Shown: piece after piece, positions 3,084 through 21,147 of the stretch
Numbering within the stretch: the stretch's first letter is position 1
How the letters are laid out: every line of letters starts with the position of its first letter
Source: a virus
Strand: one strand, 5' to 3'
Virus record (IMG/VR): IMGVR_UViG_3300045988_103300
Span: 1-21,684 of that record
DNA length: 21,684 bases
Position numbers and translations under genes: made by a program
The notes under the pieces: generated by a model
Database searches by the model: none
What the model was told of the DNA's origin: nothing
The model's input: only the letters and a program-made list of their open reading frames with translations

Positions 3084-3132
3084 TGGTGTGATAATAAAAA
3101 TACAATTTTAAATAAAAATAATGCTTAAATTA

Positions 3133-5480: not shown

Positions 5481-5483
5481 ACA

Positions 5484-5517
5484 AAAAGGAGGGTTATTTG
5501 CCCTCCTTTTCTTTTTT
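5484..5517. terminator. Bidirectional rho-independent terminator between convergent units
   Basis: Perfect 10-bp stem: aaaaggaggg (5484-5493), loop ttatttg, ccctcctttt (5501-5510). It is followed by a T-run on the plus strand and preceded by an A-run (a T-run on the minus strand). It sits between the plus-strand stop at 5480 and the minus-strand stop at 5519. Confidence 0.85.
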
Positions 5518-5518
5518 A

Positions 5519-6088
5519 TTAAACATATCTTCACTTGAATCCTTTAGCTGTATTTGCTAATCCACCACATACTCTACTAATAGCTCCTCTATCAGTTCCT
5601 ACAGATTTGGCTGCTTCTGTGCAACTTTCATACTCTTGAATAAAATTACCATCTAAATCATACTGAGCTACTTTACGACATCTTTGTTTGTTATGAGCAT
5701 CTACTTTATCTCTTCAAGATTCTGGGCAATTATGTTTCTTTCCCTTATTAGAATTAGACAGTTTCTTCTTTCATTCAGAATTAAATTTGACTCCGTAATT
5801 GCCTCCTTCTCCTCCAGGTTTCAAATTTAAACACATAGGATCAGTGTCCCATTTATCTCCAATTAGTTTGTATTCTAATTTAGATAATTCATCTGCATTA
5901 GTGCAAGTTGCCAAAATAATCTTTTGGTATGCATTAGGGAATCTTTTGTAATAATTAGTAATAATCCTTCCTGATCCTTTATATGGATCTTTATTTATGT
6001 CTTTACCTCTATAAATCCTTTTCCCAATATAATACTTGCCTCTTAATGTACCTGCAGTTAAAATTATTTTATAACAATAGTAAAACAT
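5519..6088 (-). CDS. GIY-YIG homing endonuclease with three in-frame TGAs (189 aa)
   Basis: ORF-track 5771..6088 (YCYKI...GKYYIGK...YKGSG GIY-YIG core) stops at TGA 5771-5773. Read-through gives ...KFNSE-W-KKKLSNSNKGKKHNCPES-W-RDKVDAHNKQRCRKVAQYDLDGNFIQEYESCTEAAKSVGTDRGAISRVCGGLANTAKGFK-W-RYV, ending TAA 5519-5521. The extension has NUMOD3-like basic repeats and the classic ..GF.W.Y tail. TGAs are at 5771, 5714 and 5531. Confidence 0.85.
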
Positions 6089-6540
6089 TATATAATAGTA
6101 AATTTCTGTCGTCTTTGCATCCCGTCTTTATTCTTTAATCCCAAGTGTATTCAACTTGCTATACCATTCTTAGGCTTTTCATATATCAACTGGTCTCAAT
6201 TTAATTCTTCAATAGCTTCAGCAATCCAACTTTGGAATACTTTCATATTACCATTAATTGGAGATATATCTGCTGCATACCCTGTTAAATGAGCAGAAGT
6301 TGAAGATCCTCCTACTGCTTTATTAAGCTCCTTATTTCTAAAACCAGAGGAAATCCTGATGCCTGCGTTACCAAGCTGATTGTCATCACAATACTTTGCC
6401 CATCTCTCTCTTATTGGGTCTAAAAGCTTCTCGACCAACTCTATCAGGTGCTCTGTTATACTCTCATCTGGAGTGTTATCTATATGCTTAATTGAAGCAG
6501 TATCAGATCTTGTTAATTCTTCGAGTGTGAAATACTTCAT
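6088..6540 (-). CDS. Endolysin, Peptidase_M15 (zinc D-Ala-D-Ala carboxypeptidase-like) family, two in-frame TGAs (150 aa)
   Basis: ORF-track 6196..6540 carries SSGFRNKELNKAVGGSSTSAHLTGYAADI (SxGxR..N...GG...S.H..G.A.D, M15 metal/active-site pattern) and stops at TGA 6196-6198. Read-through gives ...IEELN-W-DQLIYEKPKNGIAS-W-IHLGLKNKDGMQRRQKFTII, ending TAA 6088-6090. This restores the family's C-terminal ..DQLI.e.....W(I/V)H.. block. Confidence 0.8.
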
Positions 6541-6701
6541 TATTTAAGTATATCTTTAATCATAACATATCTATAAAATAGATGTGAAGCCACACCTATT
6601 ACAAGTAATACTACAGTAATCCAAAAAGGAATTACTTTGATTAGTAAACATATCAGCAGAATAATAACTACTGCAATTACATATTTTAACCAATATTTCA
6701 T
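6540..6701 (-). CDS. Holin candidate, two transmembrane helices (53 aa)
   Basis: Hand translation: MKYWLKYVIAVVIILLICLLIKVIPFWITVVLLVIGVASHLFYRYVMIKDILK. ATG 6699-6701. TAA 6540-6542 shares one base with the endolysin ATG. Call based on size, topology and position. Confidence 0.55.
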   Translation of the reverse strand: MKYWLKYVIAVVIILLICLLIKVIPFWITVVLLVIGVASHLFYRYVMIKDILK

Positions 6702-6702
6702 A

Positions 6703-7359
6703 TTATATTTTATTTAAAATTACACTTATCTGTATTCCAGCTCTTCTTAGATGTACTCAAGTATCATAAGGCATAGGTGTATCACAGAATGACAAACCTA
6801 AAATGCCAATATCTTTATCCTCAGTCTTTAAATAAAATACTGCTATTTCATTCACTCTGTTGGATTTAAATGCATAATATAATCTTGGATCATCTGCTTC
6901 TAAACTATCTATATTACCAAACCATCCATCATTCTTAGAAAACTCTATAATTGAAGTATAGTCAGATAACAGGAAATCTTTATAATGGCTACTTACAGAT
7001 CTTATTCCTGGTTTTACTTCCTCTGCATTCATTACTCCATAGGTAAATGGAAGTCCCCCTAATCCAGTAGTTCCATTATGATATTCAATAACCCAAGCTC
7101 TATCAGCATTTGTGCTTTGAAGCAATTCTTTAAGCTTATATTTAATCTTTAAAGTTGCTTCATTTCTTGCAATAGTTTTAGAATTGTGAGTTTGTTCAAT
7201 ATAGGTTACAACCTTATTATAAACAATAGAGGGATTAAGTGTAATAACCATTACATAGGATATAAATATTAATCCAATCCCTGCTTTAAATATCTTTAGT
7301 AATCCATATTTATCAACCCATTCTAATACTTTACCAAACCAATTTAATTTATTTTCCAT
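6703..7359 (-). CDS. Membrane-anchored protein of unknown function, in-frame TGA near C-terminus (218 aa)
   Basis: ORF-track 6757..7359 stops at TGA 6757-6759. Read-through adds -W-VHLRRAGIQISVILNKI up to TAA 6703-6705, one base before the holin ATG, which closes the gap. One N-terminal hydrophobic helix (AGIGLIFISYVMVITL). The extension has no family support; the argument is gene packing only. Confidence 0.5.
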
Positions 7360-7784
7360 TACATATCATCAGTGCAAGTACCCAGTGTGTTGTCAACTTG
7401 GAAATCAGCTCTAACAAACACTCCGCAGGTAATATCTTTGAACTTTTGATAGAATGGAGTATAAATTAAAGGATAAGCTATTTCAACTTCTGGATATAGG
7501 TTATTAAAACGATTAATTATATTTTGCAGTGCGAGCATACCTGCTGACTGTTCCTCCAATTGGTTGTTATCAGTCTCATCCCATCTTGATACGAAGTATA
7601 GGTTTAAAGAGTAAGTGATAGTATCTTCATCTACACTAAAAGTATTAGGTGTTATATAGAACACATTATACTCAATAGTTGGTAAGCTATTTAACTCATA
7701 AATATCTTTACTTCCTACAAAATTGATGTTTGGCTCTTCTAATGCACAAGCTTTTAAATTGCTAATTATCTCATAGTAGGTCAT
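7359..7784 (-). CDS. Hypothetical virion/head-completion-region protein (141 aa)
   Basis: ATG 7782-7784, TAA 7359-7361, which shares one base with the next ATG. No recognisable motif. Confidence 0.6.
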   Translation of the reverse strand: MTYYEIISNLKACALEEPNINFVGSKDIYELNSLPTIEYNVFYITPNTFSVDEDTITYSLNLYFVSRWDETDNNQLEEQSAGMLALQNIINRFNNLYPEVEIAYPLIYTPFYQKFKDITCGVFVRADFQVDNTLGTCTDDM

Positions 7785-7786
7785 AA

Positions 7787-8476
7787 TTACTTACTCTTTT
7801 TATTGTTACTTGAAGGAAAATCATAAGCTCTTTGAAGAGGCCCCTCTCCAGGTTTAATGCTCCATCCTTTACCTCTTGCTCCACCAAGCCAAATATTGCA
7901 AGATGAGCTAGAGTAAAGATTGGGAAACATATCCTTTAATGGCTTATATGTATAAAGCTCAGGGAATTCGTTATAATATGTAATTATAAAGTCCTGTAAA
8001 CGAGTCTTAAAGAAATCCGCCTTATCTCTATAATACTTCTTAATTTGATTTACTTGACTTGCTTCAGCAGCAATATCTTTCTCATCATCAGTTCTCATAA
8101 CTCCAAAATTACCAAGCTTATAAGATATAGGAATTACTATCTCGCTAAGTACTTGATAAAGTAAATAAGGCTGAACATAATAGTCTAATAGCTCTTTATA
8201 TCTGTAGTTATCAGAATCATCAATAGAATCACTTGGAAGTGGCTCAGGAGGTTCTATTGGATGAACTGGAGTATGAGGATCAATCCAATTAATACATTTC
8301 TTTTGTAATGCTTCCAATAGCTTAGTACCAATAGTTGACTGAAGTTCTACATCTTGGGCACTTGTGATGGCTGCTTGTAAATATTTACCCGATATATTGT
8401 TATCTAATGTAGAATTTGACTTTATATAGTCTTCTGAAATAAGCAGTACATTTCTATAGTTAAGTTGTTCCATCAT
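7787..8476 (-). CDS. Possible head-tail connector (gp6-like) protein (229 aa)
   Basis: The N-terminal pattern ISEDYIKSNSTLDNNISGKYLQAAITSAQDVELQSTIGTKLLEAL resembles the start of gp6-like head-tail connector/DNA-packaging proteins. It is located after the portal. Weak assignment. Confidence 0.35.
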   Translation of the reverse strand: MMEQLNYRNVLLISEDYIKSNSTLDNNISGKYLQAAITSAQDVELQSTIGTKLLEALQKKCINWIDPHTPVHPIEPPEPLPSDSIDDSDNYRYKELLDYYVQPYLLYQVLSEIVIPISYKLGNFGVMRTDDEKDIAAEASQVNQIKKYYRDKADFFKTRLQDFIITYYNEFPELYTYKPLKDMFPNLYSSSSCNIWLGGARGKGWSIKPGEGPLQRAYDFPSSNNKKSK

Positions 8477-9068
8477 AAATAAATTTATTGTTTTTATAAG
8501 GTCTATTTTCTTTTAAAGCTAAATATAATCCAGAACGTTCTCCATTAACTGATTTAACAGCTTCTTTCATTGAATTATATCTTGCAATAAAATTCCCATT
8601 CATATCAAATCTTAATATAGGCTTAACTCTAGTAATTCGTCCTTTGGAAGCATTTCCAATTTTAATAAGTGTTTCCAAAGTATAGATTCCTTTCTTTCCT
8701 TTATTCCAGGGTGTTTTACCTTTTTTAGAATTTGACATTTTTGCTCTACTCTCATTAGAAAAAGAATACCCGTATGTACCTTCTCCTCCTGATGTTATAT
8801 TGTAACCATTTTCAGGAGTATTTGTTTTATATTTATGTATCAATATCCTTTCTAATGTCTTAGCACAAGCTTCTGGTAAATTATCTTTAATTATGATATG
8901 TTCAAATCCATCTCAGCTATATTTTTGTATCGCTTTATAAAAGTAAGCTTGAGTAGAGTATCCATATCCATTTTTTCACCTAGCTTGCACACTTTGTCCA
9001 GTAATGCCAAAATATAGCTTATTGTTATACTTATTTATATGGCAATAAACAGTATAATTATTCAACAT
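8460..9068 (-). CDS. GIY-YIG homing endonuclease with two in-frame TGAs (202 aa)
   Basis: ORF-track 8460..8843 begins on TTG and lacks the catalytic domain. Extending upstream through TGAs at 8913-8915 and 8976-8978 to ATG 9066-9068 gives MLNNYTVYCHINKYNNKLYFGITGQSVQAR-W-KNGYGYSTQAYFYKAIQKYS-W-DGFEHIIIKDNLPEACAKTLERILIHKYKT...GYNITSGGEG. This is a complete GIY-YIG domain followed by NUMOD3-like basic repeats. TAA 8460-8462. Confidence 0.85.
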
Positions 9069-10149
9069 TTTGTTTGCTATCTTCTTGTCCATTTGGAGTT
9101 AAGCTAAAAGGAGTTATAGTTATTGAACCTTTCATTCCAAATATCTTATCAAATGTATCTACTATTTCGACCTGAATTGGTCTAACTACTGTACGATTAT
9201 AAAGTTTAAAAGCTTCATTAAATTCTTGTTCGTTGAATCCACTTGAGTAGTTAAGGCCAAAAAGTACACTATTAGCTCTAAATGCGCAGAATATCTGTTC
9301 TCTTGTCCTATCAGATAAAGCACTATATTTCTCATCAAAATCATCAGAGTCTAAACGCTCAATAGTAGTCTTATTTGTTTCATCATCATTATATGAAATA
9401 AGAACTCTACCAGCATTTTGAAATCCTGAGAATTTCTCATTAATATTCATCTCAATCTCTTCTTTAACTTCGTCTGTAGGCTGTCCATTATTAAAGTTAA
9501 TGATAAGATTGCCCATAAATCCGTTATGAAGAGAATTTAGATGAAACTCATTAATATTCTTCTCAGTTTCGCAAGATAGGATAGCTGCACCATAAACAGG
9601 GACTGGATATACTTTTCTTGTTATATAGCCCTTATTATAAACAACACTTGTAGGATTATCATCTGAATAATTAAATTTTGGATATTTGATAGCTTTAATA
9701 GACCAAGCAGACCAATCATCGGCATAATAGAATACTTCATTCTTTTCATCAGAACGAATCTTCATAAAGTCAAGATGATATATTTCTGAAACTCTACCTA
9801 CCATATCTCTAATTATTTGTAAAGCATATCCTCCAAAAATCATCTTATCTTTAGATACTTTACGCATAATATCCATAATAGTCTCACCTTTCTTATTTAC
9901 AGTTACTTCAAATCCTGGTGCATTACATACAACATCATTACCAACAATAAAGTCAGCAGTCCCATTAATGATAGATTGAAGAGTAGCTACATTTAAGTAT
10001 AAATCCCATAGATATAATGGATAGCGATTATCTTCACCCCAAGAAATCCAATCAGAACCCCTTTTTCTCGATTCTACAGGAAGTACTAAATTTGACACTA
10101 CAACAGGATCAATTGCACTTAATTGTACTTTTGTTTTATTTTCGCTCAT
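9058..10149 (-). CDS. Portal protein (363 aa)
   Basis: ORF-track 9058..10206 starts on TTG; the likely start is ATG 10147-10149 (MSENKTKVQ...). Portal-family features: ..WISWGEDNRYPLYLWDLYLNVATLQSIINGTADFIVG.., ..MIFGGYALQII.., ..FLGLNYSSGFNEQEF.. All 5 Trp codons are TGG. Confidence 0.75.
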   Translation of the reverse strand: MSENKTKVQLSAIDPVVVSNLVLPVESRKRGSDWISWGEDNRYPLYLWDLYLNVATLQSIINGTADFIVGNDVVCNAPGFEVTVNKKGETIMDIMRKVSKDKMIFGGYALQIIRDMVGRVSEIYHLDFMKIRSDEKNEVFYYADDWSAWSIKAIKYPKFNYSDDNPTSVVYNKGYITRKVYPVPVYGAAILSCETEKNINEFHLNSLHNGFMGNLIINFNNGQPTDEVKEEIEMNINEKFSGFQNAGRVLISYNDDETNKTTIERLDSDDFDEKYSALSDRTREQIFCAFRANSVLFGLNYSSGFNEQEFNEAFKLYNRTVVRPIQVEIVDTFDKIFGMKGSITITPFSLTPNGQEDSKQNVE

Positions 10150-10528
10150 AAGCCATATATTTGTTTTGTTTATCGTATTGGTATTTATTATTCTGATAAT
10201 CTCCAACTCTTATTAGTCCTGAACTCAATACAGGTATAGGTTTACCAGCAACTAATATCTGTGTTCCTGTAGTAAGAGTATTTTCATAAGTTACCAGAAT
10301 AACTGGATTACCATATAGCTCTGACTGCATAGGATTATTTACATCTACAATTACTTCAAGTTTATTTGGGTTACTAAACAGAATATACTGATATTCACCA
10401 TCAGGCATATCATCAGATAATGTAATATCAAACTTATAGTAGATATTTTCAGCATAATTCTGATTTTCTAAGTTATATACATAAACTTCTTTAGTAATAG
10501 TATTCTGCATTAATATTGAATAATTCAT
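10136..10528 (-). CDS. Hypothetical protein (130 aa)
   Basis: ORF-track start 10537 is TTG; the first ATG is 10526-10528. TAA 10136-10138 overlaps the portal start by 14 nt. It is the first gene after a terminator. Confidence 0.55.
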   Translation of the reverse strand: MNYSILMQNTITKEVYVYNLENQNYAENIYYKFDITLSDDMPDGEYQYILFSNPNKLEVIVDVNNPMQSELYGNPVILVTYENTLTTGTQILVAGKPIPVLSSGLIRVGDYQNNKYQYDKQNKYMAYERK

Positions 10529-10600
10529 ATTTTGCAATAGTTTTACATTAATTTACATATCTTTTTCTTAAAATATAAAAGACTATGCATATGTATTAAT

Positions 10601-10629
10601 ATAAAAATAGGGAGAATAGAATCTCCCTA
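10601..10629 (-). terminator. Rho-independent terminator after the 323-aa LRR gene
   Basis: 8-bp stem: tagggaga (10608-10615), loop atagaa, tctcccta (10622-10629). On the minus strand it is followed by TTTTTAT (complement of 10601-10607). Confidence 0.75.
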
Positions 10630-10635
10630 AATTTA

Positions 10636-11607
10636 CTATGCAGAAGCTAATGTTCAGTTCTTAGATGTAGCTAAAGCTTTTTGTTCTTCTGTAAGAGCAT
10701 TATAAACTGCAGAATTAAATGTAATAGTTTGTGTAGAAATTCCAGTTAAATCTGACACTGCTTCTAGAACATTATCAACTGAACTAGACGTTAATGAAGG
10801 AAGATTAGCTAAAGTAAATGACTTACTTGTAACTACACCTCCGAATTCTGTTAATTCAGTTAGCCAGTATGAACTTCCAAATGTATAGCCAAAAGCTGTG
10901 GAGTTTAATGAATTATTAGGAGATATAGTTATTTTGCCTAAAGATTTTAATTTTTTACAATATGTAAACATCTGATTTGTTTGACCAGTACAGTTTGGAG
11001 CGTAAATATCTGGAATGGTTTCAATTGATCCACAATAATTGAAAATGCCAGAAAGAGAAGTTGCTATAGAAAAATCCATATTTGGTAAAGTAAGCAAACT
11101 ACTACATTTACTAAAAGTTTGAAAATATTGAGATAATTTTAAATTTGCATCTATTTCAACTAAATGTTGGCAGTTATAGAAAAGTTGACTACCTTGAGTA
11201 TGGGTACTATTTAATAATATTATTTTATGTATTGCATTACTGCTAGAAGTAGTATAAAACATATTATTCATATTTTTCCCTTGGCAATCAAATGTGAATT
11301 CATCATTTTCAGACCATTCACATCCGTAGAAAAAATCAGCATAAGAAGATTTATTTAGTATAAAATAATCCTCCAATTTTAATTCCCCACCATCTCTAAA
11401 TTGATGCATATTAGAATATCCTAATGATAATGGAATAATACTTAAATCAATTTTACCTCCACCTCCAGAAATCTGTCCTATCTTATCTGCATAGCTTCTA
11501 AAGGTATCTGAATCCGATACAGCAACACCTTTAGCTACAATAGCATCTTTAATGGCACTCTTAGTACCTTCAAGATACGTTAATTTATCAGAAATTGTAT
11601 TTGCCAT
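10636..11607 (-). CDS. BspA-type leucine-rich-repeat tail/receptor-binding protein, in-frame TGA (323 aa)
   Basis: ORF-track 10654..11607 stops at TGA 10654-10656. Read-through gives ...EEQKALATSKN-W-TLASA, TAG 10636-10638. The N-terminus (LTYLEGTKSAIKDAIVAKGVAVSDSDTFRSYADKIGQI) is typical of phage LRR fibre proteins. Repeats of the F..C..L type are present (FYGCEW.., FYNCQHLVEI, FSKCSSLLTL, FNYCGSIETI, FTYCKKLKSL). Confidence 0.7.
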
Positions 11608-11608
11608 A

Positions 11609-12130
11609 TTAGATATATTTAAATTTTACCCCTTTATAAGTGTCTGTTCTTCCTTTAAGACAATCTATAACTCTACTATGAGTATACCCATCTATTGATG
11701 TTTCAATTGCATTTTTATATGTTTTAACTAGTAAATCATTAATAAATAGCCCTACAGGTTTACTAATTTTATCAATACATCTATTTATTCTAGTTCCATA
11801 TGTATTATTATACTTTGCATCACATCATTCTAAATTTTCTACCCTATTATCTGTCTTATTTTCATTTATATGGTTAACATATGGTAGATTGTCAGGATTT
11901 GGAATAAATGCTTCTGCTACTAGTCTGTGAACTTTAATAGCTTTAGGTTTATCTAAGCCAGATACTAGAATTACATAATTATAGCCATATTTATCTATAT
12001 GCTGTTTTAGCTTTTTATGTATTTGTTTTCTGGTTCTTCCAATAGAATCTTTAAAAGTCAATGGGTTACTATATACATCTCCTGTAGAAGATACACTATA
12101 GTTAGGATAATTTGTTAATACTCTATTCAT
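11609..12130 (-). CDS. HNH homing endonuclease, in-frame TGA in the HNH core (173 aa)
   Basis: Likely start ATG 12128-12130 ([26 protein letters not shown]4-like). ORF-track 11825..12208 stops at TGA 11825-11827. Read-through gives ...[92 protein letters not shown] 11609-11611. NLEW is the conserved HNH_3 motif. Confidence 0.85.
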
Positions 12131-12737
12131 TTGGAATTTCACCATTAATTGTATCAAGAGTAGTTGAGATATTACCAATCTGAGCTTGAATTGCTGAGAT
12201 TTCTCCATCTAACTCTGTCATCTTTGTATTATATGCATCTGTAGTTACATAGCTTGATAATTCACTTTTATCTGCTTTAAGTGCAACTTCATCTTTAGTA
12301 GCTAATCCAGATACATCAGGAATCTTATTCTCTACAGCTGTAAGCTCTTCTTTAGTAGCAAAATCCTCAGTACTTGGAATATCTGCCTTGAGAGCATAGT
12401 TAGAAAGATCAATAGATAGATGTAAATCTTCACCCTCTCTATTAAATGACATAGGAGAGTTTACTTGAAATACTTCCATCTTAGATGTTTCTAATTCAGT
12501 AATATCATTCTTAATTGGCTCTAACTTAGGTTCAAGTATAACATCCAACTGAGAATTAATTTGCTCATCAATTATTTCAACAGCCTTATCTTCGGAAATG
12601 TAATTACCTTTAGGTTGAAATCTGGCATCTGCTTCAATCTTTGTATAAGAACCAACTGGAAGCTGAGCTGTCTCAATACCACATTTCTTACTAACATAGA
12701 AGGTCTGAGTATTCTTAGTATTCTTTAATATAATCAT
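12123..12737 (-). CDS. Tail-fibre-like protein, short paralogue (204 aa)
   Basis: ORF-track start 12764 is TTG; the first ATG is 12735-12737. TAG 12123-12125. It shares low-complexity fibre segments (..[48 protein letters not shown]..) with the central part of the 741-aa fibre. No Trp. Confidence 0.55.
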
Positions 12738-12744
12738 AGTTTTA

Positions 12745-12966
12745 TTATTTAAGAGATTCTTCAATAGCCTTCTCAGCTTGTTCTTTATAAATCCTGTCTT
12801 GTTCCAGGGATATTTCTCTTAGATGAGTTAAATCGCAATCTAATGGACAAATACACTCTTTAAATGAGTTATACCCTTTAATGTCCATTTCGTCTTTATA
12901 GTTAGTCAGAAGCATACTATCTTCAGGCTTAACTACTTGATACTTTTCTTTAATTTCAACTTTCAT
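12745..12966 (-). CDS. Small protein, paralogue of 16039..16272 (73 aa)
   Basis: ATG 12964-12966, TAA 12745-12747. It shares ..C(I)CPL.(A/C)DL...(R).I..EQ...Y.. with the 77-aa protein at 16039..16272 and occupies the same position (between an LRR gene and a fibre gene). Confidence 0.55.
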   Translation of the reverse strand: MKVEIKEKYQVVKPEDSMLLTNYKDEMDIKGYNSFKECICPLDCDLTHLREISLEQDRIYKEQAEKAIEESLK

Positions 12967-12967
12967 A

Positions 12968-13810
12968 TTAGTATGTTACTGACCAGCCTTTACTGGTGAT
13001 TTGTGATTTTTGTTCCTCTGTTAATGAATTATATACAGTTTGATGAAATTTGATTATTAAATTTCTATCTGTAGTATATAATCCATCTATAACATTATCT
13101 ACTGACTGACTCGTTAATACTGGTAATTTTGATAACTTTAATATTTCTATGTTAGTGCTTTTCCCTATATTAGTAAACCCTCCTAAATCTGTCAAATAAG
13201 AAAAAGGCCCAGAAGCAAATATATTTTGGTAATCCTGTCACTTTTCTGCATTATATCTAGGAACAGATTCTAAAGCTATACATCCTCTAAACATATTTTC
13301 AACACTTATAGCATTATCCATATTTATATTAGGAGCATTTTTTAAAGATGAGCATCCGTCAAACATATTGTAAAAAGCTATAGCTGTTGTGCCATTAATA
13401 TCTGGTACAGATACTAATGATGAGCAGTTTTGAAATGTTTGCCCAAGATGTACAAAATTTGATAGTATATTGGGAACTATTTTTAAATTTGTACATCCAT
13501 AAAATAAACCATTTGCTGCTCCTTTATTTGCGTTTGGAAAATAGGTCATATCGGATACATCCTCAATAGAAGTGCTTTCGAATATACTATTATTACCTTT
13601 ATACCAACTATTTACTGTATTTGCATCACAATCAGTAATTTCAGTCTGTCCTGGAAATATATTATCTATAACTAATTGCTTAAATTCAGTACTTTTAAAT
13701 ACTATAGGGGAGCAAATATTACTAGGCCAGACTTTGGTACTGCCAACATAAATAGCAGTACCTTGTCTGTCACCTACATAAAATGTTTTTAAATCATCTC
13801 TAATATTCAT
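12968..13810 (-). CDS. BspA-type LRR tail/receptor-binding protein, fusion of two track ORFs across TGA (280 aa)
   Basis: ORF-track 13238..13810 ends at TGA 13238-13240. ORF-track 12968..13195 is in the same frame and begins on TTG. The joining sequence is ...RYNAEK-W-QDYQNIFASGPFSYLTDLGGF... The fused protein has the same architecture as the 323-aa paralogue: LRR units FYGCTNLKIV, FQNCSSLVSV, FDGCSSLKNA, FRGCIALESV, then a C-terminal LSKLPVLTSQSVDNVIDGL...LTEEQKSQITSKGW module. Confidence 0.75.
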
Positions 13811-13811
13811 A

Positions 13812-16037
13812 TTATTCTACAATTAAATATTGTGTATTAGGATCTTTAGTTGATAAACCATCATACTCTGATTGAGTTAGAACAGTAATAGTATTTATTT
13901 GAGGTTGGGTTCCAGTTCCAGCTTCAATATAGTTTCCAGCAGGCTGAATACCTAAATCTGATAAACTCTTATTGCCAGATAACTCAACAGAATTAATCTG
14001 AGGTTTATTTGTTAACTGAGTATAATCGGTAGCCCCTCCACCTCCAGATATTTCAAGATTACCTTCTCCTAAAATACTTTCACCATTAATAGTCTTTATA
14101 TTAGTACCAGAAACTAGTTGCTCTTGATAACTATGATAACTAGTATCTGCTGATACTCCAGTTGGAGTAATAGTAGTTTGAACTACAGTATGATTAGCTG
14201 TAGTACTTTCAAAATGGAAAGTAGCTTGAATATTTTCTCCTGAAACAAAACATACTTCTGGAGCTGCTATATCACCATAACCTAGAATATTTACATAATA
14301 AAGCTCAAATGGTGTTTTATTAGCTATAGCATTCTTAACAGCAGCGAAATCTCCAGAAAGATGAGTAGTGGAATTTATAAATAGAAATGGAATATTAGAA
14401 CCACTTTCAATTTCTATATTACCTTCTCCAAGTAAAGACTGACTATTGATTGTTTTGATATTAGTTCCACTTACAAGCAAATCTTGCTTAGTAGCCATCT
14501 CTTTATCAAGAGAATCAATCTTATCTCCATCTTCTTCTTGTTTTGTTTTAATAATTGATATATCTGAAGTATTAGTTGCTACTTGAGTAGATAAAGATTC
14601 TACTACAGAAGAATCTGCTTTACCTGCAAGTTCTATTTTTGTTGCATAATCTCCTACAGGCTGTTTAGTAGCAAGCTGCTCATCAACATAAGTCTTATCT
14701 GCTTTACCTGCTAAATCTCCAGAAACCTCTGTTTCAGTTACAAAGTTAGAATCATTAGTAAGCTCACTAACTTTAGTTGGAATATCACTCTTTAAAGCAT
14801 AATCTCCTTTATCTTGTTTTGCATCAATCTTACTTTGTAAAGAAGATCTTAGAGTCTCAATTTCCTCATTAACTGAATCGTTAGTTGCATAATCACCAAC
14901 TGGTTGGTATCCAGATAAATCTACAGATAACTGAGTCTTATCTCCATTAAAAGCTAATGGAGCTTGAGGAGCAAATACTCCTTGTTTTTCCTCAAGTTTG
15001 GCATCTACTTCTTCTTTAGTATATCCTTTATTAGTAAGATCAACCTCAGTAACTTTAACAGTCATATTACCATTATTTACTAAGATTGCATTAATAACTA
15101 CTAATACACCATTATCTTGGAAATAATAGCCATATAAATCAATAGTTTCGGGATGCTCAATAGTTGCAACAGGAATAACTATAATATCACCTTTATATGT
15201 AATCTGGCAGAATAAATAGAAGTCCAGATTAGTTCTAATAAAGTCATAGATATGTTTCTGTCTTACAGGATCATTCTCATCTAAATTAAGTAAGAAATGA
15301 TTCTCAAAAGCAGAGATTACATTATCTATAATAGATATATTCTTTCCTGCTGTAAGCGTTTCCTGTTTTGAAGCTATCTCTTTATTAATAGCTGTATTTA
15401 AAGCATCAATTTCAGCTTTGGTATATTTATCTGCTAATTGTGCATATAGAGGACCATTAACAATACCAGCTTGGTTAGTCTCTGTATTATATATTGGAAG
15501 TTCAACTGCTTCTCCAGTTTGATTACCAAATACAGGAGCTAAAGTAACTTTAGATGGGACTGATTGAATATTAATGGCAGGTACGATTGAAGCTGCTCCA
15601 GATAATTCAGTTCCATTTAAAGATGGTTTGTTACGAATAGTATTATAATCTGCAGAAATAGTATTCTCTTCAATTACTATACCATCACCTTGAACAAGTG
15701 TATTTTGCTTTCCAGCAGTGGCTTCAGTAATCTCTGCAGTTACCTCTTCTTTAGTTGGATAGTCAGCTAGTTTCTCAGTAATCTGATTATCAACTCCTTC
15801 AACTGACGGAATTCCAAGTTCATCAGAAGTCATACTTCCATTTAACTCAACTCCATTAATTTCAGGTTTATTTTGAATATCAAAATAACTGTTTGTTCCT
15901 AACTGAGAACCATCCATAACCTTAACTTCATCATCCTTGTCAATAACAATAACTTTAGTCACATTTGACTTATCTATCGTTTCAACTTCAAGGACATTAA
16001 GATAAGGAAGAATTGTCTTTTCAGTTTCGTTTGCCAT
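13812..16037 (-). CDS. Long tail fibre protein (741 aa)
   Basis: ATG 16035-16037, TAA 13812-13814. Recurrent fibre motifs: NKPxINGxELxG (three times: IQNKPEINGVELNGSMTSDELGI, IRNKPSLNGTELSG, LTNKPQINSVELSGNKSLSDLGI) and LVSGTNIKTIN(S/G)xS(L/I)LGEGN(I/L)EI (twice). Central Ala/Lys/Asp-rich repeats are present (GDYATK.ELAGKAD). By my reading it contains no Trp. Confidence 0.75.
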   Translation of the reverse strand: MANETEKTILPYLNVLEVETIDKSNVTKVIVIDKDDEVKVMDGSQLGTNSYFDIQNKPEINGVELNGSMTSDELGIPSVEGVDNQITEKLADYPTKEEVTAEITEATAGKQNTLVQGDGIVIEENTISADYNTIRNKPSLNGTELSGAASIVPAINIQSVPSKVTLAPVFGNQTGEAVELPIYNTETNQAGIVNGPLYAQLADKYTKAEIDALNTAINKEIASKQETLTAGKNISIIDNVISAFENHFLLNLDENDPVRQKHIYDFIRTNLDFYLFCQITYKGDIIVIPVATIEHPETIDLYGYYFQDNGVLVVINAILVNNGNMTVKVTEVDLTNKGYTKEEVDAKLEEKQGVFAPQAPLAFNGDKTQLSVDLSGYQPVGDYATNDSVNEEIETLRSSLQSKIDAKQDKGDYALKSDIPTKVSELTNDSNFVTETEVSGDLAGKADKTYVDEQLATKQPVGDYATKIELAGKADSSVVESLSTQVATNTSDISIIKTKQEEDGDKIDSLDKEMATKQDLLVSGTNIKTINSQSLLGEGNIEIESGSNIPFLFINSTTHLSGDFAAVKNAIANKTPFELYYVNILGYGDIAAPEVCFVSGENIQATFHFESTTANHTVVQTTITPTGVSADTSYHSYQEQLVSGTNIKTINGESILGEGNLEISGGGGATDYTQLTNKPQINSVELSGNKSLSDLGIQPAGNYIEAGTGTQPQINTITVLTQSEYDGLSTKDPNTQYLIVE

Positions 16038-16038
16038 A

Positions 16039-16272
16039 TTATTCTATATGTTTAGGTTTTAAACTCATCTCTTTAAGTTCAAGGTATTCTTTATGCTGTT
16101 CCTCTGTAATTACCCTATAGACAGATAAATCTGCATTTAAAGGGCAGTACATTAGTGTTGAGGCTGTATAAAACTTGATATTATCTCCATCAGTATATTT
16201 AGTAACATAATATCCTTTATCAGTATATACCTTGATAAAAACGTCTGTTTGTGTTATATGTAAATGTTCCAT
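16039..16272 (-). CDS. Small protein, paralogue of 12745..12966 (77 aa)
   Basis: ATG 16270-16272 shares one base with the TAA of the 500-aa LRR gene. TAA 16039-16041. The motif ..MYCPLNADLSVYRVITEEQHKEY.. matches ..CICPLDCDLTHLREISLEQDRIY.. of the 73-aa protein. Confidence 0.55.
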   Translation of the reverse strand: MEHLHITQTDVFIKVYTDKGYYVTKYTDGDNIKFYTASTLMYCPLNADLSVYRVITEEQHKEYLELKEMSLKPKHIE

Positions 16273-17774
16273 TATGCAAGAATCCAGTTTTTATTAGTAG
16301 CTATTGCTTTCTGTTCATCTGCTAGTTTAGATAAATGAGACTCTCCTAATACTAATGTATATTGAGTATCTCCAGTTCTATCTTTAAGTGCATCTAAAAT
16401 AGATACTAATGAGTCTATAGTTAGAGCTTCAAGACCTAAACTAAAATCAAGATAATCAGCATCTAAAGTTCCAGTTAAAGTAATAGTAGTAAGATTTGGG
16501 CAATCACTAAAAATAGCTCCTCCCATAGTTAATCCAGAAAAGTTGGTAGTTACTGTTGTTAAACTTTGGCAACTTCCAAACATTCCTCCTGCAGATTGTA
16601 CTGAAGAAAGGTCTATATTCCAAGAACTTAAAGTAGTATTTTGGAACATACCATCTGCCTCAATTAGTGCAGGTAACTCTATATTCCAATTACCAATAGA
16701 AGTATTCCAGAACATCATTTTTCCATTAGATAAAACTGGCAACGAATAACCCCAATCTGTTCAACCTACTCTTAAACATTGACTAAACATTTCTTCTGCA
16801 TTAACTAATCTACTTGTATCAAGTATAGGATTTTCTAATAGACCACAATTAGAAAACATACCTCTTGCTTCAACTAATATAGCATTTAATGTTATAGACT
16901 TTAATTTATTACAGTTAGCAAACATATAATCGCCATTAGTCATTTTAGGTGTACTTGCAGTAAAAGAAGTTAAACCAGTAAATCCAAACATATTATTTCC
17001 AGATGTTAATTCTGGCATATCTATATTGAACGAGGTTAACGCACTATCTCCATTAAACATTCCAGCTCCATTCTGTAAATTAGGAAGCTCCTTAGTAAAG
17101 GATGTTAACTGAGGACAACTTTGTAATATTCCTTCTCCATTAGTTACATTAGTAAAATCGAAGCCTTCAGGAACTTCAGTAAACTCACTACCTTGTAGTT
17201 TAATTTTATTTGCTGCTACGTCAATACTTCCTCCAGTTGGCACATTAACAGTTACATCAATAAACTCCATATAATCATATCCATCTGCAGGATGAATCAT
17301 TGTAGTTCCATTCTCTGTAATAGTAACTTCTCTATGCTCCTCAATTGGAATCTCTACATCTACTTCAATACTTGATAAACCTTGATAGCCAGCATCAGGT
17401 TTAACTTCAGTCATTGATAGGTTTTTATCTATTGTTATATGTTTCTCTTGTAAAGTAGGAGTTGGTACTGGAACATTTATTTGTGCAGAAACCTTCTCCA
17501 TAACATCATAATCTGGATCAGGTAAAATATCTATTAATCCATTAGATGTAATTGCAATCTCTTTAGTAGATTGTACTGTGGGAACAACAACATCAACAGA
17601 TACATTTACTTTCGACATACCATCATAACCCTCATCTGGAGTTACAACGAACTCAGCATTCTGAGTATATTCTACAGATTTCTCCTGTAATTTACATTCT
17701 TGAGCAGCTAAAGCTTCAATATCTCTTGAAGTTGTATTCTTTGCTACTTCTGGTGTTGTATATTTAATAGCCAT
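16272..17774 (-). CDS. BspA-type LRR tail/receptor-binding protein, fusion of two track ORFs across TGA (500 aa)
   Basis: ORF-track 16761..17774 ends at TGA 16761-16763. ORF-track 16272..16742 is in the same frame and begins on TTG. Junction: ...MFSQCLRVG-W-TDWGYSLPVLSNGKMMFWNT..., in mid-LRR array. The N-terminus has four ~38-aa tandem repeats. There are LRR units on both sides of the TGA (MFANCNKLKSITL, MFSNCGLLENPIL | MFGSCQSLTTVT, IFSDCPNLTTITL) and a C-terminal ..LADEQKAIATNKNWILA module. Confidence 0.8.
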
Positions 17775-17809
17775 TTTCTATAAAATATAAATAGTTAATT
17801 ATCTGTCCA

Positions 17810-17848
17810 TAAACAAAATAAGGGGCAAGTAAATTAATACTCGCCCCT
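17810..17848 (-). terminator. Rho-independent terminator after the tube-like gene
   Basis: Stem: aggggcaagta (17821-17831), loop aattaa, tactcgcccct (17838-17848), with one mismatch. On the minus strand it is followed by TTATTTTGTTT (complement of 17810-17820). Confidence 0.7.
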
Positions 17849-17857
17849 CTTCTGTTG

Positions 17858-18382
17858 TTAAGCACCTACAACACTTTGAATAGCTTCAGCACTCAACTCA
17901 TAAGGATATGATTCAGAGTCAGTAGCTAAAGTCAGCGTATAAGCGTTCTGATCACCTTTTGCAGTACCAGTAACACCCGTACCAGCGGAAGCGCTTACAT
18001 AGTCATCTTTTCCTAAGAACCAGTATTTGCCATTAGAATCTTCTACAACAACTACAAGTTGTCCAATAGAAAGAGCAGCAATCTCGATTCTTTTCTTAGT
18101 CTCCATCTTTGTAAATACAAGAGCAAGCTCATTACTTACATAGTTGGTTCCTGCAGTTTCGTCAACGTTCAATGTTGAGGTTAGAGAACCAGTACCTTTG
18201 CGGAATTGGTAATTATACCATTTAGCTGAAGATTCAAGAGTAATAGCTGAGATTTGATTAGTCTCATCATCTACAGTTACACTCTTAACATTATCGTACT
18301 GAGTAATCCATACCTGTTTGATACCACCAAGCGAAGATTCGCAATCCAGGGTAATACCAGCGATAGTTATTAAACAAGCCAT
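17858..18382 (-). CDS. Putative major tail (tube) protein (174 aa)
   Basis: It lies immediately after the capsid gene, is followed by a terminator and is visibly less AT-rich (codon bias of abundant proteins). The pattern ..GGIKQVWI......V......I.....W..Y.F....+..L...ALVF.K......I..L..G.LVVVVEDSNGKYWFLG.. resembles tail-tube proteins. Tentative. Confidence 0.4.
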   Translation of the reverse strand: MACLITIAGITLDCESSLGGIKQVWITQYDNVKSVTVDDETNQISAITLESSAKWYNYQFRKGTGSLTSTLNVDETAGTNYVSNELALVFTKMETKKRIEIAALSIGQLVVVVEDSNGKYWFLGKDDYVSASAGTGVTGTAKGDQNAYTLTLATDSESYPYELSAEAIQSVVGA

Positions 18383-18420
18383 ATAATTTCAATCTTATTT
18401 AAAGTTAAACTCTATTGAAA

Positions 18421-19326
18421 TTAGGCTTTGGCACCAAGAACTACCTCATCAGGGAATGCAACCTGTACGCCAGCGTTAAATTCAATAGCTAATCTAAATT
18501 CGCGGAAATCTTGTGAATACCACAATTCAAACTTCTCTTCATCGTTCATCATATCGCAACCATAGAAGAAGTTCTTATCTAACTGACCAGCAACAATCTT
18601 ATCAGTTCCATTAAGACCATTAACAGCGATTACTTTAACCTGCGAACCAGGAAGCATAATCTCACCATTAAGATTCTCACCACTATAGTGGTAGTAGTTC
18701 TTAGCAACTAACTCCTGGATAAATTTACGGAAAGTATCACTACCAACTAAGATAGAAGCACCATCCAGAACCTTCTCAGGAATAGCGTTATAAACAGCCA
18801 TAATGTCATCATAAGCAGATGCTCCAGTAATTACTACATCAACAACACCATCAGCAGCACCAAGGATCTTTAACAGACCATCAAAATACTTCAGGTTATT
18901 TGTTTCAGAAGCAGTATCACCCTGCCAAATAGCAGTCTCGATAGCAGCCTTAACGTTCTCAACTACTGCATTTACGAAATCCTCTTCAAAAGGAAGCGTC
19001 TTCTGACCAGCAGCTACTCGTACTTGATACTGAGTCCAGTATTTAAGCATCTCTTTATCACAATATGCCATATTGATCTTAATATTACCAGTAGCCAGAA
19101 TTCTCTGAGAAAGAGTCTGAGTTCCAGCTTCATTCCAACCACAAGCTAGGCCATCGCCAAACTGAATAGCAGTTGATAACAGGTTAAGAGCAGCACTAGT
19201 TTTGATGTCAGTTTGAAGATTGAACAACGAAGCACTCTTAGCCTTTAATACAGCCTCTTTAATAAGAGGAAGACGTCTCTGCTCTACATAAGCAGTAAGA
19301 CTAGTCATTACAGGACTATTTGCCAT
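18421..19326 (-). CDS. Major capsid protein, HK97 fold (301 aa)
   Basis: Position after protease and scaffold, size, and motifs typical of HK97-like MCPs (..AIWQGDT....YFDGLLKIL.., C-terminal ..EFNAGVQVAFPDEVV..). Less AT-rich than neighbouring genes. All 4 Trp codons are TGG. Confidence 0.75.
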   Translation of the reverse strand: MANSPVMTSLTAYVEQRRLPLIKEAVLKAKSASLFNLQTDIKTSAALNLLSTAIQFGDGLACGWNEAGTQTLSQRILATGNIKINMAYCDKEMLKYWTQYQVRVAAGQKTLPFEEDFVNAVVENVKAAIETAIWQGDTASETNNLKYFDGLLKILGAADGVVDVVITGASAYDDIMAVYNAIPEKVLDGASILVGSDTFRKFIQELVAKNYYHYSGENLNGEIMLPGSQVKVIAVNGLNGTDKIVAGQLDKNFFYGCDMMNDEEKFELWYSQDFREFRLAIEFNAGVQVAFPDEVVLGAKA

Positions 19327-19348
19327 AATTTTATAAATAATTTAATAA

Positions 19349-19960
19349 TTAACCAATAAAGTTTTTAAGCTTTTTATCAATAACAGGATTACCAGTCATT
19401 ATTGAAGCTTTGCCTTCTATCTGTTCCTCAGCTGAAAATGCAGCACTCATTTTGCTCATCTTTTCAACCGTCTTTTCTGTAGCTTCAGATTTACCCTCTA
19501 ATTCAGCTACTTTCTTAACAAGCTTATCAACAATGTCATAAAGCTCATTAATTTCGCGATGAATTGCATCAATTGCATCAGTTACAGTTTCTTTATCTCC
19601 ATCAGTAGCTACTTCAGGATCAACTGGCTCTTCAGCAGTTTCTACCTTGCGTTTTCCACAAGCAGCATCAACTTCTGCTTTAGCTGCTTCTTCTGGATCA
19701 ACTTCAGCTTTTGGATCAGTAATGGACTCTACTTTACCGTCTTTAACAACAATAGTTTTGCCATCTTCGGTAACATACTCACCATCAGCAGCAGGTGCAT
19801 ATTCTCCAGTATCAGTATCCATTGTATATACACTCATACCTGCCCTTAGATCCTCATCCTCACTACCATCGTAAGTTAGAACTCCAGCACTAGTCTTAAC
19901 ATCGTTAAATTTTGCTAAGAGTTTACTAAGTTCGATTCTCAGTTTAGTTAATTTGTTCAT
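19349..19960 (-). CDS. Scaffolding protein (203 aa)
   Basis: A highly acidic, Ala/Glu/Lys-rich helical protein (..INELYDIVDKLVKKVAELEGKSEATEKTVEKMSKM..) directly upstream of the capsid gene. No Trp. Confidence 0.6.
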   Translation of the reverse strand: MNKLTKLRIELSKLLAKFNDVKTSAGVLTYDGSEDEDLRAGMSVYTMDTDTGEYAPAADGEYVTEDGKTIVVKDGKVESITDPKAEVDPEEAAKAEVDAACGKRKVETAEEPVDPEVATDGDKETVTDAIDAIHREINELYDIVDKLVKKVAELEGKSEATEKTVEKMSKMSAAFSAEEQIEGKASIMTGNPVIDKKLKNFIG

Positions 19961-20555
19961 ACTTAAATTTAAAATTTTTATGATAGTTTTGTTTATTTTT
20001 GCAACATTTTATAATAGCACTATGATCAAAATTTCCGTTTCTTTCAGCGTCCATAGCAGATTTCCAAGTGCATATATAAGTATCATTAATATCTGTCATA
20101 ATTATACGTTTACTTACTTTTTCTTTCTGCTGTTCAGTTTGTTTAGTTCCTAATCTACATTCTCTTAACTTTAATTTTGTTTCATCCTTTAATACTCTTC
20201 CAGACTGTTTTAAAGACATTTTGTGTTTAGATTCTTCACTGTGTTTAAATCCAGTATTAGAACCTCCACCTTCATTTAAATTATAACCATTATTTAATGT
20301 ATCAAATAACTGAATATATTTAATTTCTGCATTATTTAGTTGTCTTTTCAATAATTCTGTAGAAGAACAACAAAAGATTTGAAGAATTTCCCATTTAAAG
20401 TTATTGAATTCATATTTCCTAATCGCTCTATGAAAATATGTAAGATTAGAACTGTATTTATGTTCATTCTTTCTTCTCAAGAAATTATTTGTTTGTCCTA
20501 CATATTTATTGCCATTTATAAGATTTGTTGCTAGATATATAACTCCACTATACAT
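19944..20555 (-). CDS. GIY-YIG homing endonuclease (203 aa), no TGA
   Basis: GVIYLATNLINGNKYVGQT...RRKNEH...AIRKYEFNNFKWEIL...E..YI.....NGYNLNEGG is a complete GIY-YIG domain. It is followed by NUMOD3-like repeats (HSEESKHKMS, LKDETKLKLRE, QTEQQKEKVSK) and a C-terminal DNA-binding tail. It is inserted between the protease and scaffold genes, overlapping the scaffold start by 17 nt. Confidence 0.85.
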   Translation of the reverse strand: MYSGVIYLATNLINGNKYVGQTNNFLRRKNEHKYSSNLTYFHRAIRKYEFNNFKWEILQIFCCSSTELLKRQLNNAEIKYIQLFDTLNNGYNLNEGGGSNTGFKHSEESKHKMSLKQSGRVLKDETKLKLRECRLGTKQTEQQKEKVSKRIIMTDINDTYICTWKSAMDAERNGNFDHSAIIKCCKNKQNYHKNFKFKYEQIN

Positions 20556-20556
20556 T

Positions 20557-21147
20557 CTATTTAACTCTTTTTATCTTCTTAATCATATTAAGGATCTCTT
20601 TTATTTCGTCATATTCATCAGACTTTCTCTCTAAAGTAAATAAACCTTCAATTGAGAACCCTTTAAACTTACCAGCTTTAATTGCATCCCAAATAACTTG
20701 ATTATCTACTTTATAAGTGGCAAATAAAGAACCATCAGGAACATCCTGGAATTCAACTGGAGATATTCCTCTATTAATATCCTTTACATAGATTTCTTGT
20801 AGAGTAATTCCATTTAAATCAGAATCTTCTAAATGTTCAATATTTACATCTGTAGTTCTCTTATCATACAGCATCTTCTCTGCCATTTTACGAAGAGTTT
20901 CCTTATCATACTGTATGTAGTATTCTCCGAGTTTCTCATCTCGTCTGAAAATTGGAGTATCACTTAACATTAAGCAAGATGTTACTAAATGCTTATCTTC
21001 ATCCATCGAGAACTTCTGAGAATTACTAAAAGCAACCCAGTTAACTTGTGTAGCTGGTTTGCTTGTTAAAGCAACATATTCTATTCCATCACAATCATCA
21101 GTAATCACTGCCTGAAATAATGGAAGATCATTATAAGTAATTTCCAT
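20557..21147 (-). CDS. Prohead protease, XkdF-like (196 aa)
   Basis: The pattern ..YVALTSKPATQ... ...IFRRDEKLGEYYIQYDKETLRKMAEKM......DVNIEH.......G.TLQEIYV..........W....KV.N..IWDAIKAGKFKGFSIEG matches the XkdF-type putative serine protease domain. It lies upstream of the scaffold and capsid genes. TAG 20557-20559. Confidence 0.6.
   Translation of the reverse strand: MEITYNDLPLFQAVITDDCDGIEYVALTSKPATQVNWVAFSNSQKFSMDEDKHLVTSCLMLSDTPIFRRDEKLGEYYIQYDKETLRKMAEKMLYDKRTTDVNIEHLEDSDLNGITLQEIYVKDINRGISPVEFQDVPDGSLFATYKVDNQVIWDAIKAGKFKGFSIEGLFTLERKSDEYDEIKEILNMIKKIKRVK

Follow-up and report, generated by a model that had tools for sequence, protein, structure and literature searches.

Can the uneven spread of TGA codons among the genes of a small recoded phage act as a switch that times their expression, or does it follow from the way codons accumulate? 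The question is raised by a stretch of viral DNA of 21,684 nucleotides (positions 1 to 21,684 of IMG/VR record IMGVR_UViG_3300045988_103300), referred to below as the window. These 21.7 kb have a GC content of about 30% and carry almost every gene on the minus strand; the only large plus-strand gene, at 3323-5041, encodes a superfamily 2 (SF2) helicase-like protein. The window also codes for a portal, a capsid protein, a Peptidase_S78_2 protease, a Peptidase_M15_3 endolysin, a 741-amino-acid (aa) Phage_tail_C fibre, three BspA-type leucine-rich repeat (LRR) proteins, three GIY-YIG and two HNH homing endonucleases and a sigma region 2/region 4 gene pair. A first-pass annotation had seen TGA as absent from core replication and morphogenesis genes and as concentrated in lysis, LRR, early accessory and homing endonuclease genes, and had proposed a code-gated timing switch. 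To judge from sequence comparison, TGA is clearly a tryptophan (Trp) sense codon throughout the genome of this recoded lineage (genetic code 4). As to its distribution, we lean, on balance, towards a gradient of mutation and selection rather than a temporal gate.

The window represents about two-thirds of the genome. The full gene circle was rebuilt from the window and the close relatives L009 and L002, which share segments at 92-99% nucleotide identity. Gene families were compared using 55 IMG/VR loci found with the capsid and 14 earlier loci, some 50 related genomes, with codons counted over distinct alleles. This phage lineage of about 30 kb is abundant, since an identical capsid protein is present on many contigs of about 29-32 kb (several with the cohort-style names usual when human metagenomes are studied), 315 blocks of the sequence collection index a window protein of 110 aa and the capsid search returned 4482 homologues. 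Neither megablast with the whole window nor tblastn with the capsid gave a match among GenBank phages, and scans of PHROGs, Pfam and NCBIfam yielded no function for the proteins of 726, 1114, 213, 130, 141 and 110 aa.

TGA as a tryptophan codon

Under code 11 many genes of the window are interrupted at TGA, whereas code 4 gives full-length proteins with recognisable domains; open reading frames (ORFs) of 60 aa or more add up to 8381 aa under code 4 and to 6590 under code 11. In-frame Trp codons number 16 TGA and 57 TGG in the window and 37 TGA and 85 TGG in the composite genome, where 17 of 37 genes (46%) contain TGA. Stop codons in the composite genome are 32 TAA and five TAG, with no TGA.

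Comparison with relatives bears directly on the residue inserted. TGA codons lying in columns that are Trp in standard-code relatives number 230, and such relatives align beyond the TGA positions, as the relative L057 does past the TGA of the membrane-protein gene g218. Columns mixing TGA and TGG among close relatives are found in the 1114-aa protein (16), the 726-aa protein (11) and the tape-measure-like protein (seven), with at least one each in the terminase, protease, portal and others. The TGA six codons from the end of the 323-aa LRR protein (LRR_323) corresponds to a TGG-encoded Trp in its two LRR paralogues. In the endolysin, codon 115 aligns with Phe, Tyr or Trp of homologues, while codon 130 falls on a Trp that is invariant among them, Bacteroidales chromosomal ones included. 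Trp130 is encoded by TGA in all 12 distinct recoded alleles, even those with a swapped C-terminal module. It belongs to a W-x-H motif whose His we take to be a catalytic zinc ligand in this peptidase family; the peptide across the TGA site, where Trp is expected, reads ...NGIASWIHLGLK. On this alignment the endolysin must have TGA decoded if the invariant Trp130 is to be included. The idea that endolysin and receptor-binding proteins would need TGA decoding is thus borne out for the endolysin, but not the timing switch attached to it: early genes carry TGA, no suppressor tRNA is found and the recoded genes form no blocks (see below).

Code 25, in which hosts of the Absconditabacteria/Gracilibacteria read TGA as Gly, is excluded by the alignment of TGA with Trp or aromatic residues. 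Nor was a special read-through context seen, the base following TGA being no different from that following TGG (p = 0.07).

Distribution of TGA among genes

Within the window, the gene counts on which the proposed switch rested were all reproduced (TGA/TGG; genes are on the minus strand unless stated otherwise). The helicase-like gene (3323-5041, plus strand) has 0/4, the portal (9058-10149) 0/5, the capsid (18421-19326) 0/4, the tube-like protein (17858-18382) 0/3 and the prohead protease (20557-21147) 0/2, and the window alleles of the scaffold-like protein (19349-19960), the 741-aa fibre (13812-16037) and the 204-aa fibre contain no Trp. The endolysin (6088-6540) has 2/2, the GIY-YIG genes at 5519-6088 and 8460-9092 have 3/1 and 2/1, respectively, and there is one TGA in each of the three LRR genes. 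Left out of that account were a third GIY-YIG gene (19944-20555) with 0/2, one TGA in each of two HNH genes, and TGA in three genes of the early-side operon, namely g145, the sigma region-4 gene and g108. The original partition of the window gives 0/18 against 16/37 (Fisher p = 0.007) but was picked after seeing the data; in a permutation test, heterogeneity across genes was significant neither in the window nor in the whole genome (p = 0.17).

Counting over the whole genome, as the first-pass annotation had suggested, removes the contrast between classes: morphogenesis genes plus helicase have 24 TGA and 62 TGG against 13 and 23 in the rest (p = 0.39). The third of the genome outside the window holds 21 of the 37 TGA codons. 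There lie the large terminase and a neck-like protein (2 TGA/1 TGG each), the 726-aa structural protein (4/12), the 1114-aa structural protein (8/10) and most of the 919-aa tape-measure-like protein, whose C-terminal 137 aa are the window's last ORF (21260-21673) and whose full gene, seen in L002, has 5/4. Relatives, moreover, have TGA in the protease (1 TGA/1 TGG in L002) and, in the L055 lineage at 69% capsid identity, in the capsid (one) and portal (two). The statement that TGA is absent from core morphogenesis genes therefore does not hold, and the impression arose because the window ends before the TGA-rich third of the genome. With 21 of 37 TGA codons outside it, the window is an example of how a partial view of a genome can suggest a class bias that misleads.

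What does survive is a bias between gene families, reproducible across the roughly 50 genomes; the boundary between core and accessory genes fails. TGA is rare among the Trp codons of capsid (1/183), tube (1/109), scaffold (0/29), helicase (0/30), portal (12/165) and protease (8/55). Shares are intermediate in the 726-aa (32%), 1114-aa (39%) and tape-measure-like (47%) proteins, terminase (55%), neck (50%) and endolysin (44%), and high in GIY-YIG families (57-78%), LRR_323 (79%), the 741-aa fibre (94%) and the HNH family of the gene at 11609 (HNH_11609; 100%). In a paired per-genome test, q-values are small for enrichment and depletion alike but inflated, as are the p-values, because these genomes are close relatives and not independent samples; the enriched families are homing endonucleases, LRR/fibre proteins, the tape-measure-like protein and endolysin. 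For the endolysin the TGA share is 0.46 against 0.30 in the rest of the genome (q = 0.006, nine non-independent loci). The membrane protein beside it, at 0.33 against 0.30, is not enriched.

What the bias follows

Two properties of the families go with their TGA share: the preference for A over G at the third position of Lys, Glu and Gln codons (rho = 0.61, p = 0.001) and, inversely, sequence identity as a measure of conservation (rho = -0.60, p = 0.0015). Codon usage of this sort, tracking local composition or gene age, is the outcome that had been named beforehand as speaking against a class bias. Within the window, GC content is highest in the capsid-tube region, and the capsid prefers G-ending codons, its A-ending share of Lys/Glu/Gln codons being 0.33 against 0.66 genome-wide. 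Age matters as well: of the 46 Trp columns that standard-code relatives share, 5 contain TGA alone, compared with 65 of 149 younger Trp columns (p = 3.6e-5). Overall, TGA makes up 30% of Trp codons while A-ending codons make up 66% of those for Lys/Glu/Gln (p = 6e-16), so that TGA is either disfavoured or recently captured.

The explanation we find somewhat more convincing than not is, therefore, that TGA stands for Trp genome-wide along a mutation-selection gradient. Code 4 would have been captured in an AT-rich ancestor that seldom used TGA stops and whose relatives still use the standard code. AT-biased mutation would then convert TGG to TGA and create new TGA Trp codons. Their build-up would be quickest in rapidly evolving genes, genes with a high turnover and genes of which few copies are required, a set comprising the homing endonucleases, terminase, endolysin, the tape-measure-like protein and the receptor-binding cassettes of LRR and fibre genes. 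Capsid, scaffold, tube, portal and protease, which are conserved, GC-richer and, from their roles, presumably high-copy, would keep ancestral TGG. Such retention could follow from less efficient TGA decoding where the host, as is probable, has kept release factor 2; we infer expression level to be its driver. For decoding itself, the phage would rely on its host or on a factor of its own, other than a tRNA, that has escaped recognition.

Several observations weigh against this explanation. Codon bias and conservation together account for only 38% of the between-family variance. The strongest positive outliers, far above their predicted TGA use, are the endolysin, the 741-aa fibre and one HNH endonuclease, and the strongest negative ones, far below it, are scaffold, helicase, tube and portal; these outlier classes are the same as those a gating model predicts. 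The persistence of TGA at endolysin Trp130 in every allele, swapped C-terminal modules included, and its absence from the helicase and from the first two genes behind the host-type promoter point the same way.

The search for a decoding factor

A phage suppressor tRNA, whose presence the switch had assumed, was sought in 72 loci, the window and 71 related loci, and ARAGORN found none with anticodon UCA. The sole tRNA that it did find, a tRNA-Leu, is terminal in a distant relative that uses the standard code. Rfam, at E <= 1 over the whole genome circle, gave no tRNA, and the relaxed, intron-tolerant and mitochondrial modes of ARAGORN gave only non-conserved noise inside coding regions and the terminator hairpin at 5434-5514. 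A strong, bidirectional terminator-like hairpin at 5483-5511 stands where the helicase unit and the minus-strand genes converge; it is responsible for a weak Rfam sraA match and a false 'tRNA-Ser' in relaxed ARAGORN. Release-factor and tRNA-synthetase domains were absent from Pfam, PHROGs and NCBIfam scans. The helicase is not credible as a code-change factor because homologues of it occur widely in elements of Bacteroidota, the code of these elements not having been examined.

These negatives leave room for a more unusual alternative, which we regard as rather doubtful: that the lineage makes a standard-code cell read UGA as Trp without a tRNA gene, with TGA density serving as a throttle on dose. 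Release factor 2 might be neutralised, so that host tRNA-Trp reads UGA, or the anticodon of tRNA-Trp might be edited or modified. A throttle of this kind would fit the near-absence of TGA from the presumed high-copy head genes and its fixation at the endolysin Trp and in the sigma region-4 gene.

Timing of TGA-containing genes

Bipartite promoters of the form TTTG-N19-20-TAtaTTTG occur as three perfect copies, at 2963-2994 (minus strand), 3053-3083 (plus) and 3133-3164 (plus). The whole window holds four matches against 0.77 expected, three of them in 2963-3164 and correctly oriented, and the position of the motif is kept in relatives despite diverged spacer sequence. E. coli-type sigma-70 promoters are not enriched (87 against 114 in shuffles). 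The three promoters, of Bacteroidota type (-33 TTTG/-7 TAnnTTTG), make 2963-3164, the sole intergenic region between divergent genes, a control region pointing in both directions; of the plus-strand copies, the proximal one, at 3133-3164, would give a leader of about 150 nt ahead of the helicase start at 3323. On the minus strand the operon runs from the host-type promoter through g59, g79, g145, an HNH endonuclease, sigma region 2, sigma region 4, g108 and onward. Its first two genes, g59 and g79, are TGA-free, and TGA starts with the third, g145 (2049-2486; codon 25, at 2412-2414, in a column that is TGA in all alleles). The sole Trp of the sigma region-4 gene is also TGA; decoding is therefore needed before transcription that depends on the phage sigma factor.

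Code-gated timing, after Borges et al., would have the host stop at TGA, so that TGA-free helicase, g59 and g79 are made first; a phage-induced change would later let TGA be decoded, releasing the sigma factor, homing endonucleases, tail and receptor-binding proteins and endolysin. We think this unlikely. It does draw on a good deal of the evidence already given: host signals that indicate a standard-code member of the Bacteroidota, a helicase without TGA in any of seven alleles (0/30), TGA-free genes at the head of the operon, an endolysin Trp130 that is always TGA, per-genome enrichment in homing endonucleases, LRR/fibre proteins, tape-measure-like protein and endolysin, and excess TGA in endolysin, fibre and HNH genes after correction for codon bias and conservation. 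The enriched classes match those of the Agate phages, and 46% of genes with TGA lies inside the 26-71% reported for recoded phages of standard-code hosts (preprint 10.1101/2021.08.26.457843). Against it, no suppressor tRNA or recognisable code-change gene appears in the 72 loci, and TGA is present as early as the third gene behind the host-type promoter. Early genes are not free of TGA, nor are recoded codons confined to late or lysis modules, as g145, the sigma region-4 gene and g108 carry them. TGA-free genes include clearly late ones (capsid, scaffold and tube) while terminase and the tape-measure-like gene are TGA-rich, so the split is not temporal and there is no block structure. One GIY-YIG gene lacks TGA, and the membrane protein beside the endolysin is not enriched. 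A gate acting on endolysin and helicase is compatible with the data, but the distribution does not require one and several of its features contradict one; a timing gate is weakly supported.

The host

The host is most likely a standard-code member of the Bacteroidota, as the first-pass annotation had assumed for its code, and the order is probably Bacteroidales, on the strength of three kinds of indirect sequence evidence: the promoters, the absence of Shine-Dalgarno motifs ahead of genes and the contexts of homologues. The nearest cellular homologue of the endolysin (53% identity) shares its contig with genes for Mfa-like fimbrillins, HU-HIG and a contractile injection system. One helicase homologue is in an element with a Bacteroidales-type integrase beside BACON-domain genes, and another is chromosomal in Hymenobacter. 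By tblastn, many Bacteroides and Prevotella phages match the endolysin and a GIY-YIG gene. A scan of GTDB genomes with the capsid found two distant phage-like contigs, in 'Azospirillum sp. CAG:239' and 'Bacteroidaceae' metagenome-assembled genomes, which is weak as host evidence. A copy of a relative at 91% capsid identity (L038/L077/L079) lies at the end of IMG/VR contig 3300045988_175865 (148,631 bp), an arrangement that a host junction, a chimeric contig or an assembly of several phages might explain.

Were the host an unrecognised code-4 bacterium, no suppressor would be needed and the pattern would be ordinary codon usage. This would suit the lack of a tRNA in any recoded relative, the occurrence of TGA in every module, early genes included, its complete absence as a stop and the unremarkable base that follows it, as for a normal sense codon. 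We nevertheless hold it to be improbable, since the host signals are those of Bacteroidota, of which we know of no code-4 member, a literature search for one also having found none. A Mollicutes-type host was rejected: an endolysin that is an M15 peptidoglycan peptidase makes a wall-less host unlikely, and the promoters and the under-use of TGA (30% against 66% A-ending) disagree with it, the latter with any code-4 host. Relatives at 67% capsid identity, furthermore, have no in-frame TGA.

Chance, meaning sampling noise among some 70 window Trp codons and a post hoc partition, is very improbable: although the single-genome permutation (p = 0.17) and whole-genome class contrast (p = 0.39) agree with it and each TGA-free gene has just 2-5 Trp codons, depletion and enrichment recur in the same families in lineages with capsid identities as low as 56-69%, and capsid and tube, with one TGA each in 183 and 109, stand against about 35% elsewhere in the same genomes.

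Relatives and the route of recoding

Within the capsid family, recoding is limited to some lineages, namely all relatives of at least 88% capsid identity, L055/L056 (69%) and L059 (56%). L057 (67% capsid identity, 27% GC, 19 shared gene families) has no in-frame TGA, and neither has any more distant relative. Rebuilt from L057 and L075 (IMG/VR contig 3300029905_000019, 30,128 bp), this genome shows the same structural gene order with a different early region and a different gene at the endolysin position, and only two of its ORFs end in TGA. In this comparison only the recoded genome has the helicase, g145, g79 and g59.

Higher-GC relatives terminate genes with TGA, whereas in 41 homologous genes of AT-rich standard-code relatives there is no TGA stop. 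The published route, in which a stop codon is first depleted and then captured (preprint 10.1101/2021.08.26.457843), agrees with this. The tRNA-Leu mentioned above is a tRNA-Leu(CAG) at the very end (19185-19269) of L069, a distant (48% capsid identity) standard-code relative of 56% GC, and may mark the integration site of a temperate member of the family.

Other features of the locus

The 572-aa helicase-like protein was identified by fold. Its AlphaFold model (pLDDT 82) matches DEAD-box, RecQ and PriA helicases and the HSV origin-binding helicase with a Foldseek probability of 1.0; profile and sequence searches against PDB sequences gave no match, and Pfam Helicase_C_2 is matched by three of 34 homologues. 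Invariant motif residues are G21..G26.T28 (Walker A-like), D112-E113-x-H115 (DExH), T145-A146-T147 and, in motif VI, Q294-Q295-I296-x-G298-R299.

In the minus-strand operon, g145 bears by eye a motif resembling PD-(D/E)xK nucleases (…YDG…IDYIIEVKRR…), without a database match. It is followed by an HNH/NUMOD4 homing endonuclease assigned by Pfam (1571-2062; one TGA, at 1682-1684, and two TGG), missing from some relatives. Next come g102 (1270-1578; no TGA, three TGG), resembling region 2 of extracytoplasmic function (ECF) sigma factors (NCBIfam TIGR02937, E = 3.4e-5, below the curated cutoff), and g81 (1041-1286), a sigma-70 region-4/helix-turn-helix gene by Pfam (HTH_50, Sigma70_r4_2 and Sigma70_r4). 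The sole Trp of g81, codon 35 at 1182-1184, is in a column that is TGA-only in all alleles; the counterpart of g102 in the relative L077 has one TGA. The two genes overlap by 17 nt and jointly resemble one ECF sigma factor, g102 covering TIGR02937 positions 4-105, and the same type of split is present in rebuilt standard-code L057 (6565-6873 and 6866-7186). From this arrangement, the pair may be a split sigma factor or a case of programmed frameshifting. Downstream, g108 (721-1047) encodes a membrane protein with one TGA (961-963) and four TGG.

Of the endolysin, assigned by Pfam (TGA codons 115 and 130 at 6196-6198 and 6151-6153), the first 110 aa are nearly invariant while the last 40 or so come in two unrelated-looking versions among relatives (loci L101-L103), indicating module swapping; both versions retain TGA for the invariant Trp. 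Adjoining it, g218 (6703-7359; one TGA, at 6757-6759, and four TGG) has an N-terminal membrane segment.

Five homing endonuclease genes, three GIY-YIG and two HNH, lie within 21.7 kb. The first GIY-YIG gene, with NUMOD1, has TGA at 5771-5773, 5714-5716 and 5531-5533, belongs to the family with a 78% TGA share and is missing in some relatives; the second, with NUMOD3, has TGA at 8976-8978 and 8913-8915 and is missing in L009-L014; the third is missing from L001-L008. The second HNH gene (HNH_3/NUMOD4, 11609-12130) has TGA as its sole Trp codon (11825-11827), its family totalling 20 TGA and no TGG. Segments 1521-2041, 5524-6087, 8473-9100 and 19807-20560 are missing from some close relatives and correspond to four of these genes, which, being cleanly absent there, look like actively mobile insertions.

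The LRR proteins are LRR_323 (10636-11607; one TGA, at 10654-10656, six codons before a TAG stop, and two TGG), a 280-aa LRR-like protein (12968-13810; TGA at 13238-13240, three TGG) and a 500-aa BspA-type LRR/DUF285 protein (16272-17774; TGA at 16761-16763, five TGG) that code 11 splits into two ORFs. A C-terminal module of some 60 aa (…LTS.SVDNV…EEQK…KNW…) is conserved among the three, their N-terminal parts being very divergent, and the families average only 43-58% identity among relatives, which suggests exchangeable receptor-binding cassettes. The 741-aa fibre, although devoid of Trp in the window, has 31 TGA and two TGG in relatives. A strong terminator-like hairpin (17820-17849) directly follows the tube gene, and another (10608-10629) follows g130. 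The capsid gene has a GC content of 40%.

Comparison with known recoded phages

TGA- and TAG-recoded gut phages of standard-code hosts were described by Borges et al., who proposed code-gated lysis (preprint 10.1101/2021.08.26.457843). Among these, the Agate phages offer the closest parallel in codon: TGA stands for Trp in phages predicted on standard-code gut bacteria, with close standard-code relatives, the AT-rich ones depleted of TGA stops. In Agate, preference for TGA is seen in a homing endonuclease, a tail protein and a membrane protein of the lysis cassette (same preprint), comparable with the homing endonucleases, fibre/LRR proteins and endolysin enriched here. Agate genomes are, however, large (a lineage of about 127 kb was analysed), often carry a TGA suppressor tRNA and keep replication genes as a standard-code block, whereas the present phage has about 30 kb, no tRNA, TGA in early-side genes and terminase, and TGA-free head genes. 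Suppressor tRNAs are not universal, TGA suppressors having been detected in 35% of code-4 genomes (same preprint) and suppressor tRNAs in 15% of such phages by Cook et al. 2024 (PMC11210395).

In size the nearest are Garnet, Amethyst and Topaz (22-34 kb), some of them on Bacteroidetes (Prevotella), with recoded structural and lysis genes (preprint 10.1101/2021.08.26.457843). Their described representatives are TAG-recoded, in one contiguous structural/lysis unit, and they are set beside our lineage by description only. CrAss-like phages that reassign TGA or TAG share Bacteroidales hosts, AT-richness, lack of Shine-Dalgarno sites and recoded late genes (Yutin et al. 2021, PMC7886860; Peters et al. 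2022, PMC9523058), and the best named matches of the GIY-YIG endonuclease and endolysin studied here are partly Bacteroides crAss-like phages. They differ in having genomes of about 100 kb, in which suppressor tRNAs are usual and the code changes from block to block (PMC7886860; PMC9523058); no capsid similarity to GenBank phages was detected. Mycoplasma and Spiroplasma phages, too, read TGA as Trp without a phage suppressor tRNA, but share code 4 with hosts lacking peptidoglycan (PMC11210395), whereas the present phage has an M15 peptidoglycan peptidase, Bacteroidota-type promoters and a use of TGA that is low for its AT bias.

Since recoded gut phages and lysis regulation through recoded stops have already been published, the present case adds a new lineage of such gut phages rather than a new principle. 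What is probably new is a small, tRNA-free recoded lineage, likely to infect Bacteroidales, with the same enriched classes as Agate. Abundant and compact, with many sequenced variants and standard-code relatives, it is a good system in which to separate selection on TGA from neutral drift. Its most interesting point is TGA decoding without a phage tRNA: the sigma factor, terminase, tail and endolysin all need it, yet no suppressor tRNA is encoded, and how most code-4 gut phages decode TGA is a question testable here.

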